Shown here: positions 2,072 to 14,519 of the stretch, in pieces
Layout: the number at the start of each line of letters is the position of its first letter
Numbering within the stretch: position 1 is the stretch's first letter
Virus genome (UHGV): UHGV-0203503
Direction: 5' to 3' (one strand)
Length of the DNA stretch: 14,519 nucleotides
Source of the DNA: a virus
Translations under genes and position numbers: made by a program
The notes under the pieces: generated by a model
Told to the model about the DNA's origin: nothing
What the model saw: the letters and a program-made list of their open reading frames with translations, nothing else
Database searches by the model: none

Positions 2072-2098
2072 AGCCCTCACTTAGAGGGCTTTTTGTTT
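2072..2098. terminator. Bidirectional intrinsic terminator between convergent transcription units
   Basis: Stem AGCCCTC (2072-2078) / GAGGGCT (2084-2090), 5-nt loop, TTTTTGTTT on the plus side; minus-side tail TTGGTTTTA. Overlaps the stop of the head-morphogenesis gene. Confidence 0.55.
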
Positions 2099-3027
2099 GC
2101 TGATTGCCATGCCTCTCGCTGCTTATCAAGTCTTTCCTGCGATGACTCAAGAATAACTGGCTTTCCATCCATTAGCAGTGTTGGTACTTGTGCGCAATGA
2201 CAATTCCTTCGGTTGGCAACTTCACTATAGAACGTGTCGATTTCTTCTGGCGTGTAAAACCTCCCGTGTCTCGCCGCGTGAGTATGGCGGGTCGTGCGCA
2301 TTAATGCCGATTGCCACAGCATTACCGTCTCAATACCTAACTCTTCGCGCGCTTCAATGACTTCTCTCCTGTTTGCCTGCCGCAGCGTTCCGGTGATTTC
2401 TGTTTGCGCCAACTGTTTTGCGTAACTGTGAGACACATCGATACGCTTAACGATGTCGGCTTCAACATCACGAGGATTAGCGCCTCGAGCAATGCCTTCC
2501 ATAATGACAGATGCCAGTTGCTGACGGGAATAATCACTCAATCCGCGCCAGTCTGAATATCCTTGCGTGTACGCTAGCTGGAGTCGATTCAGATAAGGCT
2601 CACTGTAGAGTATCGCGGCAATCGGCCTCTGCTCGGCATAAACCGGAGACAGGCTTGATAGCTCTGAGTTAGCCTTCTGCGTGCCAGCATGATGCGCATC
2701 ACCAATGAACACATTAGCCCACATCCTGCCGTGACCGAAGTCGTCACCTTCAAGCAGAATCTCGTCAATCAGCGCCTGCAACTCATCCATGAAAGTGGCA
2801 GCCCGCGCACTACTAAAATCGTAGAAATACAGACCGCTTGATTCTGCGTTGGTCTGGCTGCTCGGAATGGTGCGAAACAACTCAAGCGCACGAGTCCTGA
2901 GTTGTTTGTATTTGCGCGTTATCACCTTATCCATCTTCGACAGTCGCGTTGCAGCGCCTAACGGGTCGGTCAGGCTCTGCGATATGCGCGGTTGTGGCAA
3001 CCTTGCATTAAACCGGAGTATTTTCAT
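2077..3027 (-). CDS. Phage head morphogenesis / minor capsid protein (Mu F-like, SPP1 gp7 family), ~316 aa
   Basis: Lies immediately downstream of the portal gene on the same strand; C-terminal region ([18 protein letters not shown]...) resembles Mu-F-like proteins from memory. Start set at internal ATG 3027 (GGAAGA RBS) because the track ORF start 3111 lies inside the portal gene. Confidence 0.6.
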
Positions 3028-4420
3028 TTTCGTCTTCCGGCGGCGTGTCTTCGCGATAATTTTCGTCCAGCTCAATCGGCTCCATACCCACCATGCCGCG
3101 AGCCTCATCAACAGTCAGCAATGCAGATTGACCAGCATCAAAGAACGACTTGTTCGCAGTTGCGAGCTTAGACAGCAATTCGGCCTTATCCAGCTCTGAT
3201 GGAGCCAGCAGGTCATCCCACTTAACCTTGTAGCCGTTTGCCGGGGCTTTATCGACAATGCCGAACTGAATCATGCGCTCAACGAACATTGAGATGACGT
3301 AATCAACCCATGTTTCGCGGCGCTGTTTTGCGGTCATCGCCTCCTGCATCTTGTCCTCGTCGCTCGCAAGGCGTCCGGTTTGCTGGCCAAAAATAACGGT
3401 GAACGGAAGTGCCATTGATGCGGCGAACTGGTTGGCAGCAACTTCCCATGTTGGTTTCGGGTCGGCTGGTGTCACAGCGAGAACTTTTGCATCCGCGCCC
3501 ATTGTGAACATGGCTGCGTCAATCCCGGAGTTCAGCGCATCAATGTTCTCATTCATGATGTCGGTAAGCTCTTCAATATCGACACCCATTGACTGAGCTA
3601 GGCTTGCTGGCGTTACGTTATCCTTCGTGTAGTTAACCGCCAGTTGGCGGCTAGCATTCTTCAGGAAGCCCTCTGCGGAGCTACCGGAAACCTTAGCCAT
3701 GTCGATAAGGCTGTTGTAGCCAGCACGCAGCATCGGGATGCCACTGAACATACTACCGTCAAAACTACCCTCAGCCAGAATGATGATGCGGTCTGGGTGA
3801 ATCTGTACGGAACGCTCAGGCTTGCCATTGCTGTCGAAATCTTCCACGGCGCTTTCCTGGTATTCGTACATCTCAGGCATACCGTAGTCTTCGCTGGTTT
3901 CGTCGTTATTCCACGCGCTGACGCGGAGCTGCTCCTCCCATACAGGAATAAAGCGAACGATGGATTTATCTTTAATGCGGCGGGTTTTGGTGATGTCTAC
4001 AGGCTCACTCCACTGCTTGCCGTCGCGGATTTGCAGGATAACGGCGGAATAGCGGTTGATGGCGTTGCGCTTGTCAGCCTCCTTGATGAACGGGTAGGCG
4101 CGCTTCATCATGCCGTTGATGGACAACTCCCACGACGTTGAGTTCTTATCATCCTCTCCATCTTCAACCACTTCAGGGTATTTCTGCCAGCATTTATTAA
4201 TAATGCGGTTAATACCAGCGGCGGCAGCTGGGTGTCGTTCATAGGCATAACGGAACATCTCAGCGGTAATTTCCTGCGGGTAGCCCAGCTCCTTCCACAT
4301 GAACTCACGCTTCTGGTCAAGATTCTTCCCGCCAGCACAAAGCCTCTGCTGCTGAATTGCCCGGTTATTGTTCGCTACGCGGTCGCGTATATAGGCGTTT
4401 AATGCATCAATTTTTGACAT
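3008..4420 (-). CDS. Phage portal protein, 470 aa
   Basis: 470-aa ORF between terminase large subunit and Mu-F-like gene in the conserved order; acidic C-terminus. Assignment is by position and size, not by a recognised motif. Confidence 0.6.
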
Positions 4421-6288: not shown

Positions 6289-6317
6289 GCCCTCATTTGA
6301 GGGCTTTATTTTTATCG
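6288..6317 (+). terminator. Intrinsic terminator of the plus cassette, lying 7 nt from the terL stop
   Basis: Stem AGCCCTC (6288-6294) / GAGGGCT (6299-6305), loop ATTT, followed by TTATTTTTAT on plus; no T-tract on the minus side. Confidence 0.55.
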
Positions 6318-7736
6318 CCTGCGTCGGATTAGCATTCCGCTTCCGCGCTGGACGATGTGGTCATTTAGTGCGTAACGAACGGCATCCCAGAAGTGGTTAA
6401 ATGCATCGACAATATCAGTCAGCACATTCCCCGTCAGCTTATCGACCTTGTAGCTGTACATCGTTGCTTCATTCTGCATTTCCTTGCATCGCTCGTGGAT
6501 GATGATGCTGTCACATCCGCGCAGCCACGTGACGCCATCCTCAACGCTTCCCGGCCATTTAGTGCACGGGTGAATATCGAATCCAGAGCGCTTGATGTGA
6601 CTGATAGTCTCAGGTCGAGCGCAGTCTGCATACCATCGCGCGCGCTTAGCCATAGGGAATGATTGCTCCATCGCAGCTGGCGTATCGGTAATCTCAAGGC
6701 CAACCTTGCCATACTCTCGATTAATATAAATGTTGCGCCGTCCATCTGGTAATTCTTCGATATAAACCTCAACCATCGCGGTAGGATCGGTGGAAAACCC
6801 GAAGTCCATCCCGAAGTATGGGCCATGCCATTCAGGTTTGACTTCAAAGTCATCAACGCGCCATTTGCCACCGAATACCTGCTCGTCGCTTCGCTTGTTA
6901 AAGGCTCCCATCCAAATCCAGCGGTAACGGTCGTAATCAGTTCGTTTCATTTGCTCCATGGCGGATGGCAGCGGTGTATCCCAGAACCACGGGTTGTCTG
7001 AATAGTTACATTCGATAATCAGAATTTCATCATTTTCGAATATTCCATCAACCATCTGTGAGTGATAAGGAGCAATCCAGTTTTTCCATGTCGGGTCTGT
7101 TTCCTTGTTGGGGTTAAATGAGCACCACAGCTCGGAATTGGCGGCGCGGATGGTAGGCACGAGAATGTCCCAGCTTGTCTGGCTGACGTTCTCCGCTTCC
7201 TCTACCCAACCGACGGTAATGCCAGCAAAGCCCTTAACGGTTGTCTGATTGCGATACAACCCCTTAAAGCGAAACTTTGCTTTGGTCTTCTTGTGTGTTA
7301 TCTCGTTGTTGATAACGCGAAACTCAGCTGACTCGCCTTTGCGGGCTATCTCATCAACAAGCTCCTGATAGCTTGAGTCTTCAATGGATTGCTGAATCTC
7401 ACGGAAGCAGGCAAAGCGGTCGGGTCGAAACCTTGCGCGCTCAGTAAGGATGGTGATAATTGTTCTCGTTTTCCCTGACCCACGCCCACCATAGACAAAC
7501 TTGAAACGTTTGGGGTATAGCAGACGTTCCAGCTTTGCCGGAATGAGGTGGTCGGCATGAGTGGTTGCATTGGTCACATCATCAACGCCAGTAGCGGTCA
7601 TCCTTAACCGCTTGATGACGTTTTTCTGCATGTCGCAGATACCAAAGATAGCTGATTCTGCGACATCTGTCATTGCATCATCAATCTGCGCTTCCAGCTT
7701 TTCTATTGCCAGCGCGGAGAGGCGTTTACGAGCCAT
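6312..7736 (-). CDS. terL: Phage terminase large subunit, ~474 aa
   Basis: Walker A VYGGRGSGKT, Walker B-like ITVGWVEEAE, nuclease-domain-like GMDFGFSTDP. Start set at ATG 7736 (GGAG RBS, 11-nt overlap with the terS stop) rather than track start 7805. Confidence 0.88.
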   Translation of the reverse strand: MARKRLSALAIEKLEAQIDDAMTDVAESAIFGICDMQKNVIKRLRMTATGVDDVTNATTHADHLIPAKLERLLYPKRFKFVYGGRGSGKTRTIITILTERARFRPDRFACFREIQQSIEDSSYQELVDEIARKGESAEFRVINNEITHKKTKAKFRFKGLYRNQTTVKGFAGITVGWVEEAENVSQTSWDILVPTIRAANSELWCSFNPNKETDPTWKNWIAPYHSQMVDGIFENDEILIIECNYSDNPWFWDTPLPSAMEQMKRTDYDRYRWIWMGAFNKRSDEQVFGGKWRVDDFEVKPEWHGPYFGMDFGFSTDPTAMVEVYIEELPDGRRNIYINREYGKVGLEITDTPAAMEQSFPMAKRARWYADCARPETISHIKRSGFDIHPCTKWPGSVEDGVTWLRGCDSIIIHERCKEMQNEATMYSYKVDKLTGNVLTDIVDAFNHFWDAVRYALNDHIVQRGSGMLIRRRR

Positions 7737-8172
7737 TCTGCTGCTCCAGCAATTTCTCCAGTCGTTCAAGGCGCGCGGCGAGTTCGGTAATTTCCTGAAT
7801 ATCAAGGCCAGACTTGATAATGTCTGCCATCATCTTTCCGATGTCGGCAGGAACAACGCCAGTGGATACACCCTTGATGATTGCGTCCATTTTTTGCACC
7901 GGGGTTCCGTCAGCAGGGAAGTCGAACTCCACAGGAGGAGCTACAGGCTTAGGAATTGGGTTGAGCCTCAGGAATATCTCTCGAAGCATACTGGTAGCCT
8001 GAGCGTCTTCGCATGTCATCGCCTTATTGATGTAATAAGTGACGAATTCAATCTCACTCATCGGTGTATTCGCAGCACGAAGCGCCTCAAGCAGCACAGT
8101 GCGATAGCTCTTTCCGCGCGGAGGTGGTTGATTTGTAGATGAAAATTTGTGTTTTGGATTTGGGTTTGCCAT
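7726..8172 (-). CDS. terS: Phage terminase small subunit (probable), 148 aa
   Basis: Immediately upstream of and overlapping terL; basic N-terminus and helical C-terminus; start at ATG 8172 (track ORF extends to 8247 but first ATG is at codon 26). Confidence 0.6.
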   Translation of the reverse strand: MANPNPKHKFSSTNQPPPRGKSYRTVLLEALRAANTPMSEIEFVTYYINKAMTCEDAQATSMLREIFLRLNPIPKPVAPPVEFDFPADGTPVQKMDAIIKGVSTGVVPADIGKMMADIIKSGLDIQEITELAARLERLEKLLEQQNGS

Positions 8173-8229
8173 GTCTATTGTGTTCTTTGAGTAACTCACA
8201 TACGTTAATTTTAACACATAGACGTAGAT

Positions 8230-8255
8230 AAAAAAGAACCCGCACAAGGCGGGTT
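8230..8255 (-). terminator. Intrinsic terminator (minus strand) ending the small-gene operon before terS
   Basis: Stem AACCCGC (8237-8243) / GCGGGTT (8249-8255), 5-nt loop, followed on minus by CTTTTTT (complement of 8230-8236). Confidence 0.5.
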
Positions 8256-8299
8256 AAGGTTGGGTGATGATATGAGTGAAAGTAGTGGTGGTTATGTGC

Positions 8300-8473
8300 T
8301 TATTGTACACCATCATTATCACGCTTGCCAGCATGGCACCATGCGTTTTCATCACGAGTCTGCACATGAACGATTTCAAGCGCATCAGGGAATGTCTTTG
8401 CTATCTTCGCGATAAAATCGTCCAATTCGTGCTGTTTGGCGAGTTGCCAGACTTTCTGTTTAGTGGTTTGCAT
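8300..8473 (-). CDS. Hypothetical protein, 57 aa
   Basis: ATG 8473 with GAGGG 9 nt upstream; part of track ORF 8300-8539; last gene before the terminator. Confidence 0.3.
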   Translation of the reverse strand: MQTTKQKVWQLAKQHELDDFIAKIAKTFPDALEIVHVQTRDENAWCHAGKRDNDGVQ

Positions 8474-8639
8474 TTGCAAAAGCCCTCGTAGAGCACATGT
8501 ATTTAATCTCATGCACACCATTGTCTGGCACAACCTCAATGCGATTGCTGAGCTGCACCATCATGTAATGGCATGTCATCATACCGTCCCAGTATCGTTT
8601 CCACATAAATTCCATTGCGGCGTTGATATCGTCAAACAT
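8460..8639 (-). CDS. Hypothetical protein, 59 aa (below ORF-track cutoff)
   Basis: ATG 8639-8637 overlaps the end of the upstream gene (ATGTTTGA); translation MFDDINAAMEFMWKRYWDGMMTCHYMMVQLSNRIEVVPDNGVHEIKYMCSTRAFANANH. Confidence 0.3.
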   Translation of the reverse strand: MFDDINAAMEFMWKRYWDGMMTCHYMMVQLSNRIEVVPDNGVHEIKYMCSTRAFANANH

Positions 8640-8952
8640 AATGCTGCCACCCCCTTTTAACCCATGCTACGCGATTTTTGTTGGTGTGAATCAGTCCTCT
8701 TGCGCTTTCTGTTAAATATGGTAGTTCTCTGTTGTTAAACGGATAATCACCATTAAGTCCAGCTTTAATGAATTGCTGCCGCATTAACTTTCTTGCCTGC
8801 TCCCTTTCCTTTGGTGTTGACCCCATCACCTTTAAATGCAAGGTTAAGGAAACACAAATACCGCAATTACGACTAAATGGTTTACCTTCTGGCGCTCCAG
8901 CATCAATCCAGTCGGAGTATACTTCATAAAAATCAGCTAATTGATTAAACAT
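8632..8952 (-). CDS. Hypothetical protein, 106 aa
   Basis: ATG 8952 with AGGAG 9 nt upstream; track ORF 8632-8970. Confidence 0.5.
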   Translation of the reverse strand: MFNQLADFYEVYSDWIDAGAPEGKPFSRNCGICVSLTLHLKVMGSTPKEREQARKLMRQQFIKAGLNGDYPFNNRELPYLTESARGLIHTNKNRVAWVKRGWQHYV

Positions 8953-9052
8953 AATGCACAACTCCTGCAATAGCCGCTACCAGTGCAAGCACATAAACAG
9001 CAAGGAAAATTTTAGCGCCAGTGGTGTAGTTGCGTCGTTGGTACTTGGTCAT
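8945..9052 (-). CDS. Possible 35-aa single-helix membrane peptide
   Basis: ATG 9052-9050 overlaps upstream TGA (ATGA); translation MTKYQRRNYTTGAKIFLAVYVLALVAAIAGVVHYV; its stop overlaps the next gene start. Confidence 0.2.
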   Translation of the reverse strand: MTKYQRRNYTTGAKIFLAVYVLALVAAIAGVVHYV

Positions 9053-9246
9053 TCGTCGTTCTCCCGCCCTAGATATGAGAGTGATGTGATTGCCACTGCC
9101 GTGAACCTGTCACTGCCAATCAAACTCTTCAGCACCTCGACATCTTCTTGCGATTTAATTCTGAACGTCAACTGAGCTATGCCAGCCACTGATGACGCGC
9201 CTCCTGCAGATATTGCATTGTAGTGATAAATATATCTATTGCTCAT
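9049..9246 (-). CDS. Hypothetical protein, 65 aa
   Basis: ATG 9246 with GGAG 8 nt upstream; track ORF 9049-9252. Confidence 0.4.
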   Translation of the reverse strand: MSNRYIYHYNAISAGGASSVAGIAQLTFRIKSQEDVEVLKSLIGSDRFTAVAITSLSYLGRENDE

Positions 9247-9309
9247 CCACACATCTCCACTAAAGCGTGCGCCACATAGAGCGCACTGATAATTAACATG
9301 AACGGGTAG

Positions 9310-9699
9310 CTATTCACTTTTAGCCAGGCTTTCGAATTGCTGTGCTATGGTGTCAAACTGAACCATCTTGACAACATCGTCGAACATGACAAATTCTCCT
9401 TCATGGTCTTCACTCATGTCAGCACCGTAATCCTCCCGCTTCGGTGCTGCTGCGATAATTTCACCCTCGTATCCGATTCCAATGCTCCTCGATTCACCTA
9501 TGTAGACTACCGGACATCCGACGAGATAATCTGAGTGCGAAGCAAGCTTACCATTCAAAATTTTACCGTCATTCATCCTTACATAAACATCCGACATCAA
9601 CGGAAGCGCCATTATTTGCTCATAGGTTAGCTTTACTGGCTTGGCGGAGTTCATTACCGGCATGTACTTAGGCGGCTTGCGCCCGTTCACCCTGCTCAT
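9310..9699 (-). CDS. Hypothetical protein, 129 aa
   Basis: ATG 9699 preceded by AGGAGG (4 nt spacing); acidic C-terminal half. Confidence 0.55.
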   Translation of the reverse strand: MSRVNGRKPPKYMPVMNSAKPVKLTYEQIMALPLMSDVYVRMNDGKILNGKLASHSDYLVGCPVVYIGESRSIGIGYEGEIIAAAPKREDYGADMSEDHEGEFVMFDDVVKMVQFDTIAQQFESLAKSE

Positions 9700-9841
9700 T
9701 CGACCTCCTGCTGTGGTGCTTCTGCGAGCATTGTCACAAGAGCCATGAAATCAGCATACTTAACATATAAACCAGAAATGTCATCGCCATCTGTATTAAG
9801 CTACGCGTCGTTGCAGTTTGCTGCGTATGTTTTAACTTCAC

Positions 9842-10075
9842 TCATACCCTAACCCCCATAATTTCTTCGTAATAGCCATCTTCTTCAAACTCAATCTTTG
9901 CGATTTTGAGCGCATCCTCATCTGTGATATCAATCGCTTTGAATTTGCATTTTGACAGCACTATGCAGCCTGACAGGATTAACCACTTATTCCACAAGCG
10001 CACTCGCCTGATTGTCCTGCTCGAATACATCTTGTTCTGCACAAACCAGAACTCGTATGTTTTTACTTTCGCCAT
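9842..10075 (-). CDS. Hypothetical protein, 77 aa
   Basis: ATG 10075; GGTGA upstream; track ORF. Confidence 0.45.
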   Translation of the reverse strand: MAKVKTYEFWFVQNKMYSSRTIRRVRLWNKWLILSGCIVLSKCKFKAIDITDEDALKIAKIEFEEDGYYEEIMGVRV

Positions 10076-10111
10076 ATCATCACCATTAAAAATAAGAGTG
10101 CTGAATCGTGT

Positions 10112-10294
10112 TCAAAATACGATAATCAGCTCATCCATCACTCTGTGCTTACCTTCACCATTAAACACGCGCACAACTCGATTTACGCGGATAGATTCCA
10201 TTGCATTGCGTGCCTGCTTGCTCATAAAGTTCTGCGCGCCAACGTGACCGAGTTCCGGTTCCAGCTTCTCGCGACGATAGATAGTCTTTGCCAT
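10112..10294 (-). CDS. Hypothetical protein, 60 aa
   Basis: ATG 10294 with AGGAG at 6 nt spacing. Confidence 0.45.
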   Translation of the reverse strand: MAKTIYRREKLEPELGHVGAQNFMSKQARNAMESIRVNRVVRVFNGEGKHRVMDELIIVF

Positions 10295-10297
10295 TTG

Positions 10298-10393
10298 TTA
10301 CTCCTTATACCCTGATTTAGAAACTGCCACTGCGATAATGATGGATGCCACGATAACCAGACTGGCGACAAGCTCGAATGTTGCGCCTGTCAT
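10298..10393 (-). CDS. Possible 30-aa single-helix membrane peptide
   Basis: ATG 10393-10391 overlaps upstream TGA; translation MTGATFELVASLVIVASIIIAVAVSKSGYKE; stop overlaps the RBS of the next gene. Confidence 0.2.
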   Translation of the reverse strand: MTGATFELVASLVIVASIIIAVAVSKSGYKE

Positions 10394-10575
10394 TTCTTCG
10401 AAGCCTTATATTCATCTTCTGTCAACGCGTATGCCTCGCAAATCATGTTTGCCGCATCAATAATGACATTTGAGCGCATGTCAGCAGGCAGGCTTGGAAC
10501 CTGTTGTGACAATGCCATGCATATATCGCTGAATAACTTCATCTGGTCGATGCTGTACGTGCTTTCTTCTTTCAT
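10390..10575 (-). CDS. Hypothetical protein, 61 aa (first gene of the minus operon)
   Basis: ATG 10575 with GAGGGTGA upstream; ~24 nt downstream of predicted promoter P4. Confidence 0.45.
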   Translation of the reverse strand: MKEESTYSIDQMKLFSDICMALSQQVPSLPADMRSNVIIDAANMICEAYALTEDEYKASKK

Positions 10576-10605
10576 CTCTTCACCCTCGTTTGTTTCGATT
10601 AGTTC

Positions 10606-10634
10606 AATCTACATCAGTTGTGATTCTACGTCAA
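10606..10634 (-). promoter_or_regulatory. sigma70-like promoter P4 for the minus operon 10575 to 8300
   Basis: Minus strand reads TTGACG (complement of 10629-10634), 17-nt spacer, TAGATT (complement of 10606-11); same architecture as P2. Confidence 0.45.
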
Positions 10635-10640
10635 CAGCAA

Positions 10641-11025
10641 GTTACCCAAATAACGATAATTCCGGTAACCAGGAGCATAAAAACCGGTAACTGTTATAAA
10701 TCAATTACTTACTATTCATTCATGCCATTTTACCATCAAAAAAGTTACCGGAGTTACCGGTCGCCCGGTAACTTGAAACCCGCATGCATCAAGGCTCTCA
10801 GGAGAGTTACCGGATTTACCGGGTAACTCCTTACATATATAAAAAGTGTTGAATTTCTTATTATGTATATGATTTATAAGCGTTTTATTCAATTTTGATA
10901 CAAATTCTCATTTTTGAAATTTTTATAAGCTCATATGCAAAAAATCCGGTAACTACGGTAACCCTATAGTTATCAATAGCTTACGTCGGTAACCGCTCGG
11001 TAAAAACCCGGTAACTCCGGTAACT
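10641..11025. repeat. Iteron-like array: about 14 copies of CCGGTAAC / GTTACCGG flanking an AT-rich core (10828-10944)
   Basis: Exact CCGGTAAC at 10662, 10684, 10765, 10946, 11008, 11017; exact GTTACCGG at 10744, 10753, 10806; one-mismatch copies at 10815, 10955, 10986, 10997; palindrome GTTACCGGtcgcCCGGTAAC 10753-10772; IHF-like TATCAAtagcTTA 10971-10983. Confidence 0.7.
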
Positions 11026-11065
11026 ACTGTAAAGATGCGTAAGTAAGCTCATTATCTTGCTGTCG

Positions 11066-11094
11066 TTGACGTGTACATAATATTCATGTATATT
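11066..11094 (+). promoter_or_regulatory. Near-consensus sigma70 promoter P5 for the plus operon 11120-13784
   Basis: -35 TTGACG 11066-11071, 17-nt spacer, -10 TATATT 11089-11094; ~25 nt leader to AGGAGG and ATG 11120. Confidence 0.5.
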
Positions 11095-11119
11095 TTTTAC
11101 ATGACAAAAGGAGGGCTGA

Positions 11120-11398
11120 ATGTACCCAGATGGCACTAAACTAATGTTTGCATACGAGCTGTTATCTTCAATGAAATCTGGTGAACTGGTTGGTATTCAC
11201 TTCGAGAATGAATACTCAAGCGAAATCATCAAAGGAGAAAAGGAAAATTGCCGCTCCGTGGTTATTGATGAAAAGTACCGAATGACGCACAACATGTTCA
11301 GGTCTTACTGCACCAGAATAGCCAATGAACAAGGCATGGTTATAAAAACAAAAACCAGTGAAAGCAAAAAATTCATGTATATCTGGAGAGTCCTGTGA
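11120..11398 (+). CDS. Hypothetical protein, 92 aa
   Basis: AGGAGG 11109-11114 five nt before ATG 11120; stop overlaps the next start. Confidence 0.5.
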   Translation: MYPDGTKLMFAYELLSSMKSGELVGIHFENEYSSEIIKGEKENCRSVVIDEKYRMTHNMFRSYCTRIANEQGMVIKTKTSESKKFMYIWRVL

Positions 11399-13026
11399 TG
11401 ACTGATTCAAAGAAAATCATTGAACTAAAGGAATCTCTGAAGCCAACAGGTAAGCCTGATTCTGGAAATCCACTTGATGAAATTGACGTGCAAGAATTCC
11501 GAGAAGAATACAAAATCCCGCCTGGCTCTCTTGGTGAATTCATGTGCGAGATAGAGAATCATTTTGAAAATCGCGAAGAAGGAGAGGTTTACAGATTGCC
11601 GGGTGCTATCGCTCTTGCTCAAGTGATGGCTGGAAGATACATAATTGGCCCAAGCGCAAAAAACAAGTGTGCCACGGGGACATTTATTGTTGGTCGCTCT
11701 GGCGCAGGTAAGGGTGCTCCATCTGATTTTGTTAAGGCTTACTCAGAGAATCTTGGAATCACTCCACGCGTATCAAAAAGCACAGTAACTTCATTGCGAC
11801 AAATCAAAGAGCGCCTTATTGAGGCTGATGGTTTCTTGCTTTATATCGCAGATGACTGCCCTGAACATCTTCAGGCTTGGTCAGATACGCGATCACCTCT
11901 TGGTGAAACGGCATCATGGTTCAGGACGTCCATTAGTGGCGACTGGTTCCCTGAGTCTCCTGTTGTTACATTGTTTCAGGAGAAGCTGGCCAGCGCTCAA
12001 AACCCGAAGTTAATACTCTCTGCAGCGCAGGCTCAGGGGTGGATGATACCTCGCATCGGCGAATCTGATGGCGCTATAGATTATCGTCGGCTTGCAAAAA
12101 TGAACCATGACATTGGGAGAAGATTAAATCACGCCATGCAATGTTATGACCTGTGCATTAACGAGAAGGGAATACAGAACGTAAGGTTCATTCCGTTCAT
12201 AACCGTGACCCCAGAGCAGGGAATTGCAACAGTACGGAGATGGGAAAAGGATGGTGGCATGGGGAGATCTCTTTTCATTAAAGGTCATGAACACATGCCG
12301 GAACTTAAGAATACTCCTGACATGGAAATCAATAAAACAATAATAAACGAATGGAAACCAAGAATTCCAGGTGGTTTTTTTAATGTGGAATATGCCAATG
12401 ATGGTGTTTCGAAATACTATGAGATGTTGCGCAGGCGCATAGACAAGTCAAGCAACATTCCAGGTGTAATTGGTAGCGTCGGCCCTCGCTCTGCTCAGAT
12501 GGTTATTGAGCTTGCTACTCTTTGTGCATTTGCTGATTTATCATCGCGCAATGGCATGACTCCGCAGGTAAAGGAATGCCATATTGAATGGGCATATGCA
12601 ACCGTAATGAACAGCATGTACGACCTGCGTGATTATCTGGAGGGAGAAGCAGAGTTTGATGGCCTTGAAAACACTGAGTGGGACAACATTGTTATGAAGG
12701 TTAAAAAATGCATTGAATCAAAGGCTTTCGCTGAAAAGCCTTATATTTCAGTTGTCAAAAACAAACTTTGTCGCGACAGAATCAGTAAGATAATTTCCGC
12801 TGCCGATTCAAACTCAATTCAGGTTACGCCGGATAAATTTACTTACGAGGTCATCATTGCGATATCTGAAAACAGGCATTCACCAATAGAACTCGACCCT
12901 GAGAACCCATCAAACATCCGGCTTTCTGGTGGCGGTTCATGGTCTGGATTGCGCATGAATGCATCAGTCAGGAATATCCTGTCATCAGCAATGAAGCGAA
13001 TGAGATTTATGAGGAACTTGAAATGA
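11398..13026 (+). CDS. Large hypothetical protein, 542 aa, with a glycine-rich loop GRSGAGKG and a hhhhDD motif (FLLYIADD); function unknown
   Basis: Longest ORF in window; ATG 11398 overlaps upstream TGA; GGAG 11384-11387. The glycine-rich loop is not a canonical Walker A (K followed by G, not S/T), so no NTPase call is made. Confidence 0.6.
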   Translation: MTDSKKIIELKESLKPTGKPDSGNPLDEIDVQEFREEYKIPPGSLGEFMCEIENHFENREEGEVYRLPGAIALAQVMAGRYIIGPSAKNKCATGTFIVGRSGAGKGAPSDFVKAYSENLGITPRVSKSTVTSLRQIKERLIEADGFLLYIADDCPEHLQAWSDTRSPLGETASWFRTSISGDWFPESPVVTLFQEKLASAQNPKLILSAAQAQGWMIPRIGESDGAIDYRRLAKMNHDIGRRLNHAMQCYDLCINEKGIQNVRFIPFITVTPEQGIATVRRWEKDGGMGRSLFIKGHEHMPELKNTPDMEINKTIINEWKPRIPGGFFNVEYANDGVSKYYEMLRRRIDKSSNIPGVIGSVGPRSAQMVIELATLCAFADLSSRNGMTPQVKECHIEWAYATVMNSMYDLRDYLEGEAEFDGLENTEWDNIVMKVKKCIESKAFAEKPYISVVKNKLCRDRISKIISAADSNSIQVTPDKFTYEVIIAISENRHSPIELDPENPSNIRLSGGGSWSGLRMNASVRNILSSAMKRMRFMRNLK

Positions 13027-13224: not shown

Positions 13225-13479
13225 ATGGATGTGAAAGATAAAGTTTTATACGTGATGAGAAAGAGGAAATCCATTGAAAAGACGCTTGGGATTTGTCGAA
13301 AGTTCTCCGTTGCTACGTGGAGTTTACGTCTATCGATGGCGAATGAATTTCCTGATGATGAATGGACAGCGGCAAAGTTACGGAAGGTTCTGATTTCTCT
13401 TTGTAAGGATGGTCTTGTGTCAAAGGATTTAAATAACAGTCGCATCGGTAATTCGGTTTGGATTCTGGAGGAAAACTGA
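13225..13479 (+). CDS. Hypothetical protein, 84 aa, possibly a small winged-helix DNA-binding protein
   Basis: GAGGG 13213-13217 seven nt before ATG 13225; basic N-terminus and helix-turn-like segment; the DNA-binding call is a weak impression. Confidence 0.4.
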   Translation: MDVKDKVLYVMRKRKSIEKTLGICRKFSVATWSLRLSMANEFPDDEWTAAKLRKVLISLCKDGLVSKDLNNSRIGNSVWILEEN

Positions 13480-13784
13480 TGGCTAACCTACAGCTTGCCG
13501 TCAAAGGCGAATACTTCGATGCCATGATTCGTGGAGAGAAAACGGAAGAGTATCGCCTTTTTAATGACTACTGGAAGAGGCGACTTATTAACTTTAAAGA
13601 TAGCGGACAGATTGGAAGGAAGTACGAACGGTTAATTATCACAAAAGGATATCCAAAGAAGGACGATAAATCCAGGCGGATTGACATCCCATATGATGGA
13701 TGGACTGTTAAAACAATCACGCATCCTCACTTCGGTCCTGATCCAGTGAAAGTGTTCGCAATAAAAGTTAACATCAAAGCGTAA
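13479..13784 (+). CDS. ASCH-domain protein, 101 aa
   Basis: Contains the ASCH signature GxKxxExR (IRGEKTEEYR) near the N-terminus; GGAGG 13467-13471 seven nt before ATG 13479, which overlaps the upstream stop; track ORF begins earlier at TTG 13458. Confidence 0.6.
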   Translation: MANLQLAVKGEYFDAMIRGEKTEEYRLFNDYWKRRLINFKDSGQIGRKYERLIITKGYPKKDDKSRRIDIPYDGWTVKTITHPHFGPDPVKVFAIKVNIKA

Positions 13785-13788
13785 CAAA

Positions 13789-13808
13789 AACCCTCCAGAT
13801 GGAGGGTT
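13789..13808. terminator. Bidirectional hairpin terminator between convergent genes
   Basis: Stem AACCCTCC (13789-13796) / GGAGGGTT (13801-13808), loop AGAT; minus-strand transcript is followed by a U-rich tract (UUUGUU), the plus side by a weaker tail. Confidence 0.5.
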
Positions 13809-13812
13809 TACT

Positions 13813-14481
13813 TTACCTGCTTACTGACATTTTCTCTATCAACTCGCCAGCGTCATAAATCTTTCTCCTGATTCTCTTTGCCATCCTGATAGTGTCAGCA
13901 TCATCAGGCAACATCACCGGAAGCCCTGCGTTTTCCGCAGAGCACAGTTCGTCAAATTTATAATTAACTATGCAGCGTAACCGTGCTTTATTCTCATCGC
14001 TAACAGAACGCACTACTTCCCACATGTTTTCCGGCGACCAGCAGCACCAGACATGCGCGCCAGTGAAGTAATGGCATTTCCACGCATCTGCATAATCAGA
14101 CACAAGATAAATAAACTTTCCGTTTTCTTCACCGATTGGGCTTATCGCGCCGCGCGTGAGTTTGCCGTTGATGGCTGAGTCCTTGTTGTATCCTGCTTTG
14201 TAGAATGTTCTGAACGCATCACCATCCATGCCAATGAATGCCACGTTGCACGGCTTCATTGTGTCAGCGTGCACCATCTCAACCGCAATAAGCTCTCCAG
14301 ATTTGCCTCTGACGACGTTAACGTCGCAACCAATACCATTTATCAAAGTCCACTCATTCATCGCGACACTCTTCGTTTTAGACATGATTGCTGCGACTTC
14401 CCGCTCTGTGATGAAGTCATCGTTGTAATTTATCTTCGGCAGTTCCTTCCTGATAGCCTCCAGCTTTTCGCGTGGATTCAT
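13813..14481 (-). CDS. Hypothetical protein, at least 222 aa (true start may lie beyond the window end)
   Basis: Track ORF; the reading frame stays open upstream of the first ATG to the window edge (..PEALEALGGFLN-M..); Cys/Trp-rich segment HVWCCWSPENMW; no recognised family. Confidence 0.45.
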   Translation of the reverse strand: MNPREKLEAIRKELPKINYNDDFITEREVAAIMSKTKSVAMNEWTLINGIGCDVNVVRGKSGELIAVEMVHADTMKPCNVAFIGMDGDAFRTFYKAGYNKDSAINGKLTRGAISPIGEENGKFIYLVSDYADAWKCHYFTGAHVWCCWSPENMWEVVRSVSDENKARLRCIVNYKFDELCSAENAGLPVMLPDDADTIRMAKRIRRKIYDAGELIEKMSVSR

Positions 14482-14519
14482 GTTCAGGAATCCACCAAGC
14501 GCCTCCAGTGCTTCTGGAA

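Follow-up and report, generated by a model that had tools for sequence, protein, structure and literature searches.

An iteron array around an AT-rich core, upstream of a predicted MCM-like helicase gene, as a candidate replication origin of Skatevirus-group siphophages

What is the function of a dense array of short repeats in a non-coding spacer of a small phage genome? The question is raised by the virus genome UHGV-0203503, of which a single stretch of 14,519 nucleotides was analysed (hereafter the window). Its array, at positions 10641-11025, lies directly upstream of an operon for a 92-amino-acid (92-aa) protein and a 543-aa protein, the latter unannotated as a helicase. An earlier note on this DNA, made from the sequence alone, proposed either an iteron-type replication origin or a centromere-like site. 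We conclude, with a probability of roughly 80% and on the basis of sequence comparison and predicted structures, that 10641-11025 is a phage replication origin that would work by the mechanism set out below. This reading is strongly supported by context and comparison, because the array directly precedes an operon encoding an MCM-like AAA+ protein, because its layout is kept while its motif changes, and because the array and the helicase gene are replaced together. What the analysis shows directly is the array with its statistics, the conservation of its layout, the exclusive link between it and the helicase gene, and the fold predicted for the protein that this gene encodes.

The repeats are confined to the spacer to a degree that chance does not produce. 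Nine exact copies of CCGGTAAC/GTTACCGG occur in the window, all of them within 363 bp (10662-11024), against an expectation of 0.11 from shuffled sequence; the highest count in any of the 200 shuffles was one. Copies with one mismatch number four in the array and six in the other 14 kb, and two further array sites with two mismatches bring the total to about 15 (a scan for the GGTAA core gives 16). The same concentration is found in the complete genome of Escherichia phage vB_EcoS_swi2 (hereafter swi2; Swiduovirus, 47.6 kb), which is ~92% identical to the window in the array region: 10 of its 12 CCGGTAAC copies fall within the 542 bp of the homologous spacer, and the motif is thus not similarly dense elsewhere in the genome. 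The earlier note's description of the array holds in all of these respects, including its estimate of about 14 copies of an 8-mer, their arrangement in five clusters around an AT-rich core with spacings of 9, 11 or 22 bp, and a perfect inverted pair, GTTACCGG-tcgc-CCGGTAAC, at 10753-10772. Within the right-distal cluster the spacings are 11, 11 and 9 bp, measured between GGTAA-core starts (10988, 10999, 11010 and 11019). The right-proximal pair of sites is oriented opposite to the left-proximal pair.

Only one other local concentration of the core motif was seen in the swi2 genome (L010). Three CGGTAACG copies fall within ~100 bp at 11331-11437, outside the window, in a coding sequence annotated as 'neck whiskers protein', and are probably coincidental coding sequence.

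The core that the clusters flank has a GC content of 22-28% in 100-bp windows, and its richest 100 bp is 82% A+T, in agreement with the AT-rich core that had been placed at 10828-10944. Matches to the binding consensus of integration host factor (IHF) are also concentrated here. An IHF-like site had been pointed out at 10971-10983, and its sequence, TATCAATAGCTTA, matches the consensus WATCAANNNNTTR perfectly; a second perfect match, at 10699-10711, had been overlooked, and these two are the only strict WATCAANNNNTTR matches in the window. Sixteen strict matches occur over ~85 kb of loci, and 13 of these fall in array spacers. No DnaA box was found in the spacer with up to one mismatch allowed.

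The array is positioned between divergent promoters, as the earlier note had it, with promoter-like sites on either side (10634-10606 and 11066-11094) and the outermost repeat, at 10641, only 6 bp from the leftward -35 element. In phage Mu, for example, an operator array that IHF assists lies between divergent promoters. The placement could be accounted for by an array devoted to transcriptional control alone, with operators through which a cassette-encoded protein governs the divergent pair of early promoters, the replication start lying elsewhere. We nevertheless consider such a purely regulatory role improbable. Neither core promoter is overlapped by any iteron, and 41 bp separate the end of the last right-hand site from the rightward -35 element; the 117-bp AT core, which contains no promoter match, and the divergent sites flanking it would be left without a role; and the linked protein is, as far as its model shows, an MCM-like AAA+ ATPase rather than a repressor. 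No other candidate origin was seen; in swi2, no other 120-bp stretch has a GC content as low as the homologue of the AT core.

A search for the same array in related phages, which the earlier note had suggested, revealed a conserved plan. Eight further loci, drawn from GenBank phages and metagenome contigs, have a gene whose product is homologous to the 543-aa protein (33-99% identity), and in all eight a spacer of 400-590 bp directly upstream of this gene has the same layout. On the left side of the relatives' spacers lie minus-oriented sites, with a '< < >' block abutting a core of 78-84% A+T; on the right side a plus-oriented pair 8-9 bp apart is followed by a ~30-bp gap and then by two to four plus-oriented sites 10-11 bp apart. 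The motif itself differs among loci, being CCGGTAAC in the window, swi2, L005 and L006, CCGGTAAA in Bas77 and L008, GGGAACT in KpnS_VR6602 and L007, and TRGTAAA in KLB16. The arrays of the GGGAACT class, the TRGTAAA class and the CGTGGGG repeats of Shigella phage DS8 (described below) were each significant when tested against shuffled sequence. An alignment of the six CCGGTAA-type spacers has a mean column identity of 58%, and its invariant blocks fall on the iterons, between which the sequences diverge and carry insertions and deletions; clearest among these blocks are AGTTACCGGATTTACCSGGTAAC beside the core (in the left-proximal block, and the most conserved) and the right-proximal pair. Only two genes, those for the 543-aa and the 92-aa protein, go with the array across the nine loci.

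A second short motif, GGCYTGC (often GCGGCYTGCRGAG), occurs near the iterons in relatives' spacers of different iteron classes (L002, position 1702; L005, 758; L008, 2385; L003, 2554 and 2572; L007, 2529; L004, 2830 and 2890). The window and swi2 contain a diverged version of it, GGCTCTCAGGAG, which lies at about 10788-10799 of the window.

A comparison of the window with DS8 revealed that array and helicase gene are exchanged as a unit. Nucleotide homology of 90-94% extends over 6311-10640 and returns at 13774-14519, with sharp breakpoints at 10640/10641 and ~13774 between flanks that are ~88-94% identical. The DS8 interior carries CGTGGGGCA (CGTGGGG) repeats on both sides of a core whose richest 100 bp is 87% A+T, followed by genes for a 90-aa AP2-domain protein, a DUF3987 helicase (Pfam, 1e-34) and a DUF3850/ASCH protein. 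The DS8-type cassette is also present in phages E1, C1 and STGO-35-1, and SB28 carries a further, third type, which has an 800-bp spacer, GTGGGCAC-like repeats and a DUF3987 helicase sharing 34% identity with its DS8 counterpart; the DS8, STGO-35-1 and SB28 proteins encoded at this locus match PF13148 at ~1e-34 to 1e-35. The breakpoints and the alternative cassettes thus indicate a single slot, from the conserved leftward promoter to the primase gene, that holds alternative units of repeats, AT core and superfamily 6 (SF6) helicase.

The database records of these phages contain further observations on the arrays. In the E1 record (L011), 25-bp inverted repeats GTGGGGCAACCAACCTGCCCCACGA at 2916-2940 and 3147-3171 flank the AT core and are labelled only 'repeat_region', and the small gene upstream of the helicase gene is labelled a pseudogene. 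The Bas77 (L002, 1493-1609 and 1705-1815) and DS8 (L009, 4570-4704) records annotate small 'hypothetical protein' coding sequences inside the arrays, which are probably spurious open reading frame (ORF) calls over non-coding origin DNA.

Two other roles that repeat arrays can have were also considered. Terminase sites can be short-repeat arrays with IHF sites, as in lambda cosB, and the gene for the terminase large subunit lies in the same leftward direction (6312-7805), which would suit a packaging (pac) site bound by the small terminase subunit. We rejected this explanation as very unlikely, given that the region of the terminase large subunit is 90.6% identical in nucleotides between the window and DS8 though their arrays are unrelated, and that the array co-varies with the helicase and sits ~2.8 kb and about ten genes from the terminase genes. 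The second role is that of a parC-like centromere bound by a small adaptor for segregation, to which the phased short repeats near a promoter could belong. It was also rejected, and we give it next to no weight: the phage group is virulent, the sites diverge around a 117-bp AT core, unlike those of parC, and do not overlie a promoter, and the helicase had no match in plasmids and the array none in Escherichia coli genomes. No gene for a partition NTPase (ParA, ParM or TubZ-like), and no operon pairing one with a small adaptor, was found among the window proteins or in the swi2 annotation. Of the two readings offered in the earlier note, the iteron origin therefore stands and the centromere falls.

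The product of the 543-aa gene is a predicted helicase by its modelled structure and its distant sequence relatives. The sequence has no match in Pfam (E ≤ 0.01), NCBIfam or PDB, none to the MCM model PF00493, and none to PF13148 (DUF3987) above the curated cut-off; it weakly matches the C-terminal (helicase) half of a 788-residue 'DNA primase' fusion family in PHROG. A word-based search of 5.8 billion clusters returned ten relatives, and a profile search of 1.84 billion representatives returned 87, ten of them below 1e-30; the distant profile matches include DUF3987 proteins and PrimPol-DUF3987 fusions, with DUF3987-bearing proteins at E values of 1e-10 to 1e-14. An hhalign comparison of the helicase profile with single DUF3987 sequences gave no match. 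The predicted structure has an AAA+ fold closest to the AAA+ domain of MCM (pre-sensor II insert clade), and winged-helix domains match its C-terminus; residues 421-543 are basic (isoelectric point 9.6) in a protein that is neutral as a whole. Invariant in the family are the P-loop lysine K106, the Walker-B aspartate D154 and an arginine, R291, in the sequence GGMGR-x-LF before strand 5, a position that we infer to correspond to the SRFD arginine finger of MCM. Walker A, at residues 100-107, reads GRSGAGKG (G-x-S-G-x-G-K-G or K-Q across the family, with glutamine after the lysine in three relatives). DUF3987 proteins have been proposed to be MCM-related (SF6) phage replicative helicases with a winged helix-turn-helix at the C terminus and a link to primases (Kazlauskas et al., PMC4889955), and one of them, AgaPH, has been demonstrated to be a helicase (PMC11724360).

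Candidates for the protein that reads the iterons were judged by a table of presence and absence across nine relatives. Three were rejected. The 61-aa protein is missing from swi2 despite the shared array, and is conserved at 93% in Bas77 and at 90% in DS8, whose arrays differ; the 84-aa protein is absent from all nine relatives; and the primase, encoded just outside the cassette, is 91% conserved in phages with other arrays or cassettes. The first two were among the three binders that the earlier note had put forward and do not survive this comparison. Its third candidate, the 92-aa protein, which KLB16 lacks, is less likely than the best candidate, the 543-aa helicase, which does not figure in the note's list.

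The 543-aa protein is the only protein present wherever this array type occurs. The 92-aa protein accompanies it in eight of the nine loci, the exception being KLB16, which keeps the array. The helicases of DS8 and STGO-35-1 are 99% identical and their repeats near-identical, and the small proteins encoded upstream are unrelated. The array of KLB16 without the small protein, together with the unrelated small proteins of DS8 and STGO-35-1, thus identifies the helicase as the constant partner of the arrays. We favour, with some reserve, the winged helix of the 543-aa helicase over the 92-aa protein as the part that would read the iterons. The 92-aa protein, confidently modelled (predicted local distance difference test score 95), has an alpha/beta fold with no clear known relative, and a fold search returned weak matches of mixed kinds from PDB and, from BFVD, viral proteins that are uncharacterised. 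It is likely to be a partner of the helicase and would be an accessory, whether as loader, regulator or co-binder. An origin of the kind described in which the 92-aa protein is instead the sequence-specific reader of the iterons, recruiting or loading the 543-aa helicase, is in our view unlikely.

The mechanism that we propose begins with the operon itself, which host RNA polymerase would transcribe early from the promoter at 11066-11094. The 543-aa MCM-clade AAA+ protein would then recognise the CCGGTAAC iterons through its basic C-terminal winged helix. The proximal pairs (10806/10815 on the bottom strand and 10946/10955 on the top strand), which face apart across the core, may position two oppositely oriented oligomers, and IHF bound at 10699 and 10971 may bend the arms and thereby bring the distal iteron clusters back against the complex. 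The 117-bp AT core would melt and the helicase load itself without DnaA or a separate loader, after which the adjacent phage primase and host DNA polymerase III would take over.

Several observations weigh against the array being an origin of this kind or against parts of the mechanism. Iteron binding, core melting, helicase activity, origin firing, the double-oligomer geometry and the use of IHF are all steps that we infer from sequence and models. The 543-aa protein matches no Pfam or NCBIfam family, and its model lacks the N-terminal OB-fold/Zn domain of MCM proteins, residues 1-90 being helical only. Its Walker A motif lacks the usual serine or threonine after the lysine, which is unusual for an active MCM-clade P-loop ATPase; ATPase activity is thus not assured. 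Comparisons of the helicases by segment and by class-discriminating columns localised no specificity determinant and did not single out the winged helix. The design cannot depend on IHF, since loci of the GGGAACT class lack its consensus. The cumulative GC-skew minimum of swi2, at 38-39 kb, falls on the spacer and in the same kilobase as the AT core, but it coincides with a switch in gene orientation and is not independent evidence. Finally, given the position of the array between divergent promoters, a regulatory role may coexist with that of an origin.

A broader generalisation is more tentative, and we put it forward as a working idea that could well prove wrong. Small virulent enterobacterial siphophages (the Skatevirus cluster and its relatives) may carry interchangeable replicon cassettes, each with a helicase-initiator of the MCM clade that needs no loader, a small partner protein and a bipartite origin of iterons around an AT core; one slot would then be shared by no fewer than three protein lineages and five motif classes. 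The lineage found in the window, a very rare, uncurated branch (87 matches in 1.84 billion representatives), would assemble as a pair of opposed rings on a three-tier origin folded by IHF. If this is true, the phages would offer a tractable E. coli model for the sequence-directed self-loading of an MCM-like helicase.

The surroundings of the array are listed in Table 1. Parts of the window match many siphophages of Salmonella, Escherichia and Shigella with genomes of 45-48 kb, which the authors of the BASEL collection place around the genus Skatevirus (PMC11990801); the source phage is a virulent siphophage of this group. Among the proteins annotated for swi2 there is a 'DNA polymerase III beta subunit' and no replicative polymerase. 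No structured RNA was detected, with 0 Rfam matches across the entire window.

Table 1. Features of the array and of its surroundings in the 14,519-nucleotide window
Feature	Position	Strand	Description
Mu-F-like head-morphogenesis gene	2077-3111	-	
Portal gene	3008-4420	-	
Terminase large subunit gene	6312-7805	-	
Block of small early genes		leftward	
61-aa gene	10390-10575	-	Heads the leftward operon
Non-coding spacer	10576-11119		544 bp; holds the array
Leftward early promoter-like site	10606..10634	-	TTGACG-17-TAGATT; in a 65-bp block conserved group-wide
Outermost degenerate site	10641..10648	-	GTTACCCA; 2 mismatches; also the left breakpoint of the exchangeable cassette
Outer-left pair	10662-10669, 10684-10691	+, +	Both exact; 22 bp apart
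IHF consensus match 1	10699..10711	+	AATCAATTACTTA; between outer-left and middle-left clusters
Middle-left cluster	10744..10772	-, -, +	10744(-), 10753(-), 10765(+); all exact
Left-proximal block	10806..10827	-, -, +	10806(-) exact; 10815(-) and 10820(+) 1 mismatch each; abuts the AT core
AT-rich core	10828..10944		117 bp, ~80% A+T; presumed DNA unwinding element
Right-proximal pair	10946..10962	+, +	10946 exact, 10955 1 mismatch; 9 bp apart
IHF consensus match 2	10971..10983	+	TATCAATAGCTTA; in the ~30-bp gap of the right arm
Right-distal cluster	10986..11024	+ (four sites)	10986 1 mismatch, 10996 2 mismatches, 11008 and 11017 exact
Rightward promoter-like site	11066..11094	+	TTGACG-17-TATATT (10/12); 92-aa/helicase operon
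92-aa gene	11120..11398	+	First gene of the rightward operon; stop overlaps helicase start (TGATG)
543-aa gene	11395..13026	+	Second gene of the rightward operon; predicted MCM-like (SF6, DUF3987-related) AAA+ domain and basic C-terminal winged helix (~residues 460-540)
84-aa gene	13225-13479		phrog_2814
101-aa ORF	13479-13784		Start overlaps stop of the 84-aa gene (TGATG)
GC-rich hairpin	13785-13809		ccctcc-agat-ggaggg between an A-run and a T-run
Phage primase gene	13813..14519	-	Zn-ribbon type; phrog_510; convergent with the operon; cut by the window end

Neighbouring genes differ among the phages as well. At the head of the leftward operon, swi2 has a different small gene in place of the 61-aa gene, an instance of mosaicism beside the cassette boundary. 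A segment at 13240-13773 that holds the 84-aa gene and the 101-aa ORF is missing from swi2; the ORF has no Pfam match, and the two look like an inserted accessory pair outside the origin system. The hairpin that separates the rightward operon from the convergent primase gene looks like a bidirectional intrinsic terminator.

The kind of element described here is already known, since an iteron/AT-rich origin with a winged-helix helicase-initiator is found in Staphylococcus aureus pathogenicity islands (SaPIs) and in satellite phage P4, and DUF3987 and MCM-like helicases had already been predicted to be replicative helicases of phages. What is new is the candidate origin itself, which is unannotated in all phage records examined (the repeats of E1 appearing only as 'repeat_region'), the assignment to it of a rare, uncurated MCM-like lineage and a 92-aa partner, the three-tier layout with IHF sites, and the cassette-wise exchange among related virulent phages. 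We found no paper describing an origin in these phages, in a literature search that did not extend to the 2008 genome paper of phage E1, and none describing an origin for DUF3987 helicases. If the origin reading is correct, it would pin down the replication start of widespread Salmonella, E. coli, Shigella and Klebsiella phages, including Bas77-81 of BASEL, assign a function to two 'hypothetical' genes, and provide the first candidate cognate origins of DUF3987/MCM-like phage helicases. Origin and helicase would then travel as an exchangeable module, which bears on therapeutic phage engineering and on the incompatibility of co-infecting relatives. The series of cognate pairs (CCGGTAAC, CCGGTAAA, GGGAACT, TRGTAAA and CGTGGGG) amounts to a natural specificity panel.

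Comparison with characterised replicons places the array among several related designs. Iteron plasmids (pSC101, R6K gamma and RK2) and the O/ori system of lambda likewise combine clustered initiator sites with an AT-rich unwinding element beside the initiator gene, and pSC101 and R6K share an IHF site with the array (PMC4980987). Their initiators, however, consist of winged helices only and bring in DnaA and DnaB from the host, whereas the candidate here is an AAA+ helicase-like ATPase, and their iterons, accompanied by DnaA boxes, are directly repeated to one side of the unwinding element, in contrast to the divergent sites on both sides and the lack of a DnaA box observed here. No match to Rep families of the Rep_3, pi or RepA type was found among the window proteins.

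Archaeal origins, at which inverted origin recognition boxes (ORB) for Orc1/Cdc6 flank an AT-rich unwinding element and MCM is the helicase, have a similar geometry, and the 543-aa protein has its best structural matches among MCM AAA+ domains and also has a predicted winged helix. In satellite phage P4, octamer iterons at ori and crr are read by the C-terminal winged helix of alpha, a helicase-containing initiator, and replication is DnaA-independent. Alpha is an SF3 helicase fused to a primase, and P4 needs two separated iteron regions, ori and crr; the array described here is a single bipartite one around an AT core, and the primase is encoded by a separate gene. The DUF3987 (PF13148) helicases resemble the 543-aa protein in having a predicted SF6 AAA+ core and a C-terminal winged helix and in being encoded beside a primase, and the same slot is filled by true DUF3987 helicases, each preceded by a repeat/AT-core array of its own, in the sister phages DS8, E1, C1, STGO-35-1 and SB28. 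They differ from the 543-aa protein in that the latter has no PF13148 match, its kinship with them emerging only from the profile search.

The closest parallel is provided by the SaPIs. Although a test for homology between the 543-aa protein and SaPI Rep proteins was negative, and although the SaPI origin lies immediately downstream of rep rather than upstream of the operon and between divergent promoters as here, the two designs have much in common. The iterons that SaPI Rep binds with its C-terminal winged helix are 5-6 nucleotides long and flank an AT-rich region, each flank having two or more, in opposite orientation, and Rep requires no loader (PMC9371898). The mechanism proposed above follows this established scheme. 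A like arrangement of short iterons in opposed orientation around a central AT-rich region, as in SaPI origins and especially that of the SF6-type SaPIbov1 Rep, is seen here in the pairs 10806(-)/10815(-) and 10946(+)/10955(+) and in all eight relatives. An AAA+ helicase-initiator with a C-terminal winged helix, which is hexameric in the SaPIs, is here suggested by the predicted fold. In both systems a primase gene is adjacent, and the specificities of origin and Rep co-vary between elements.

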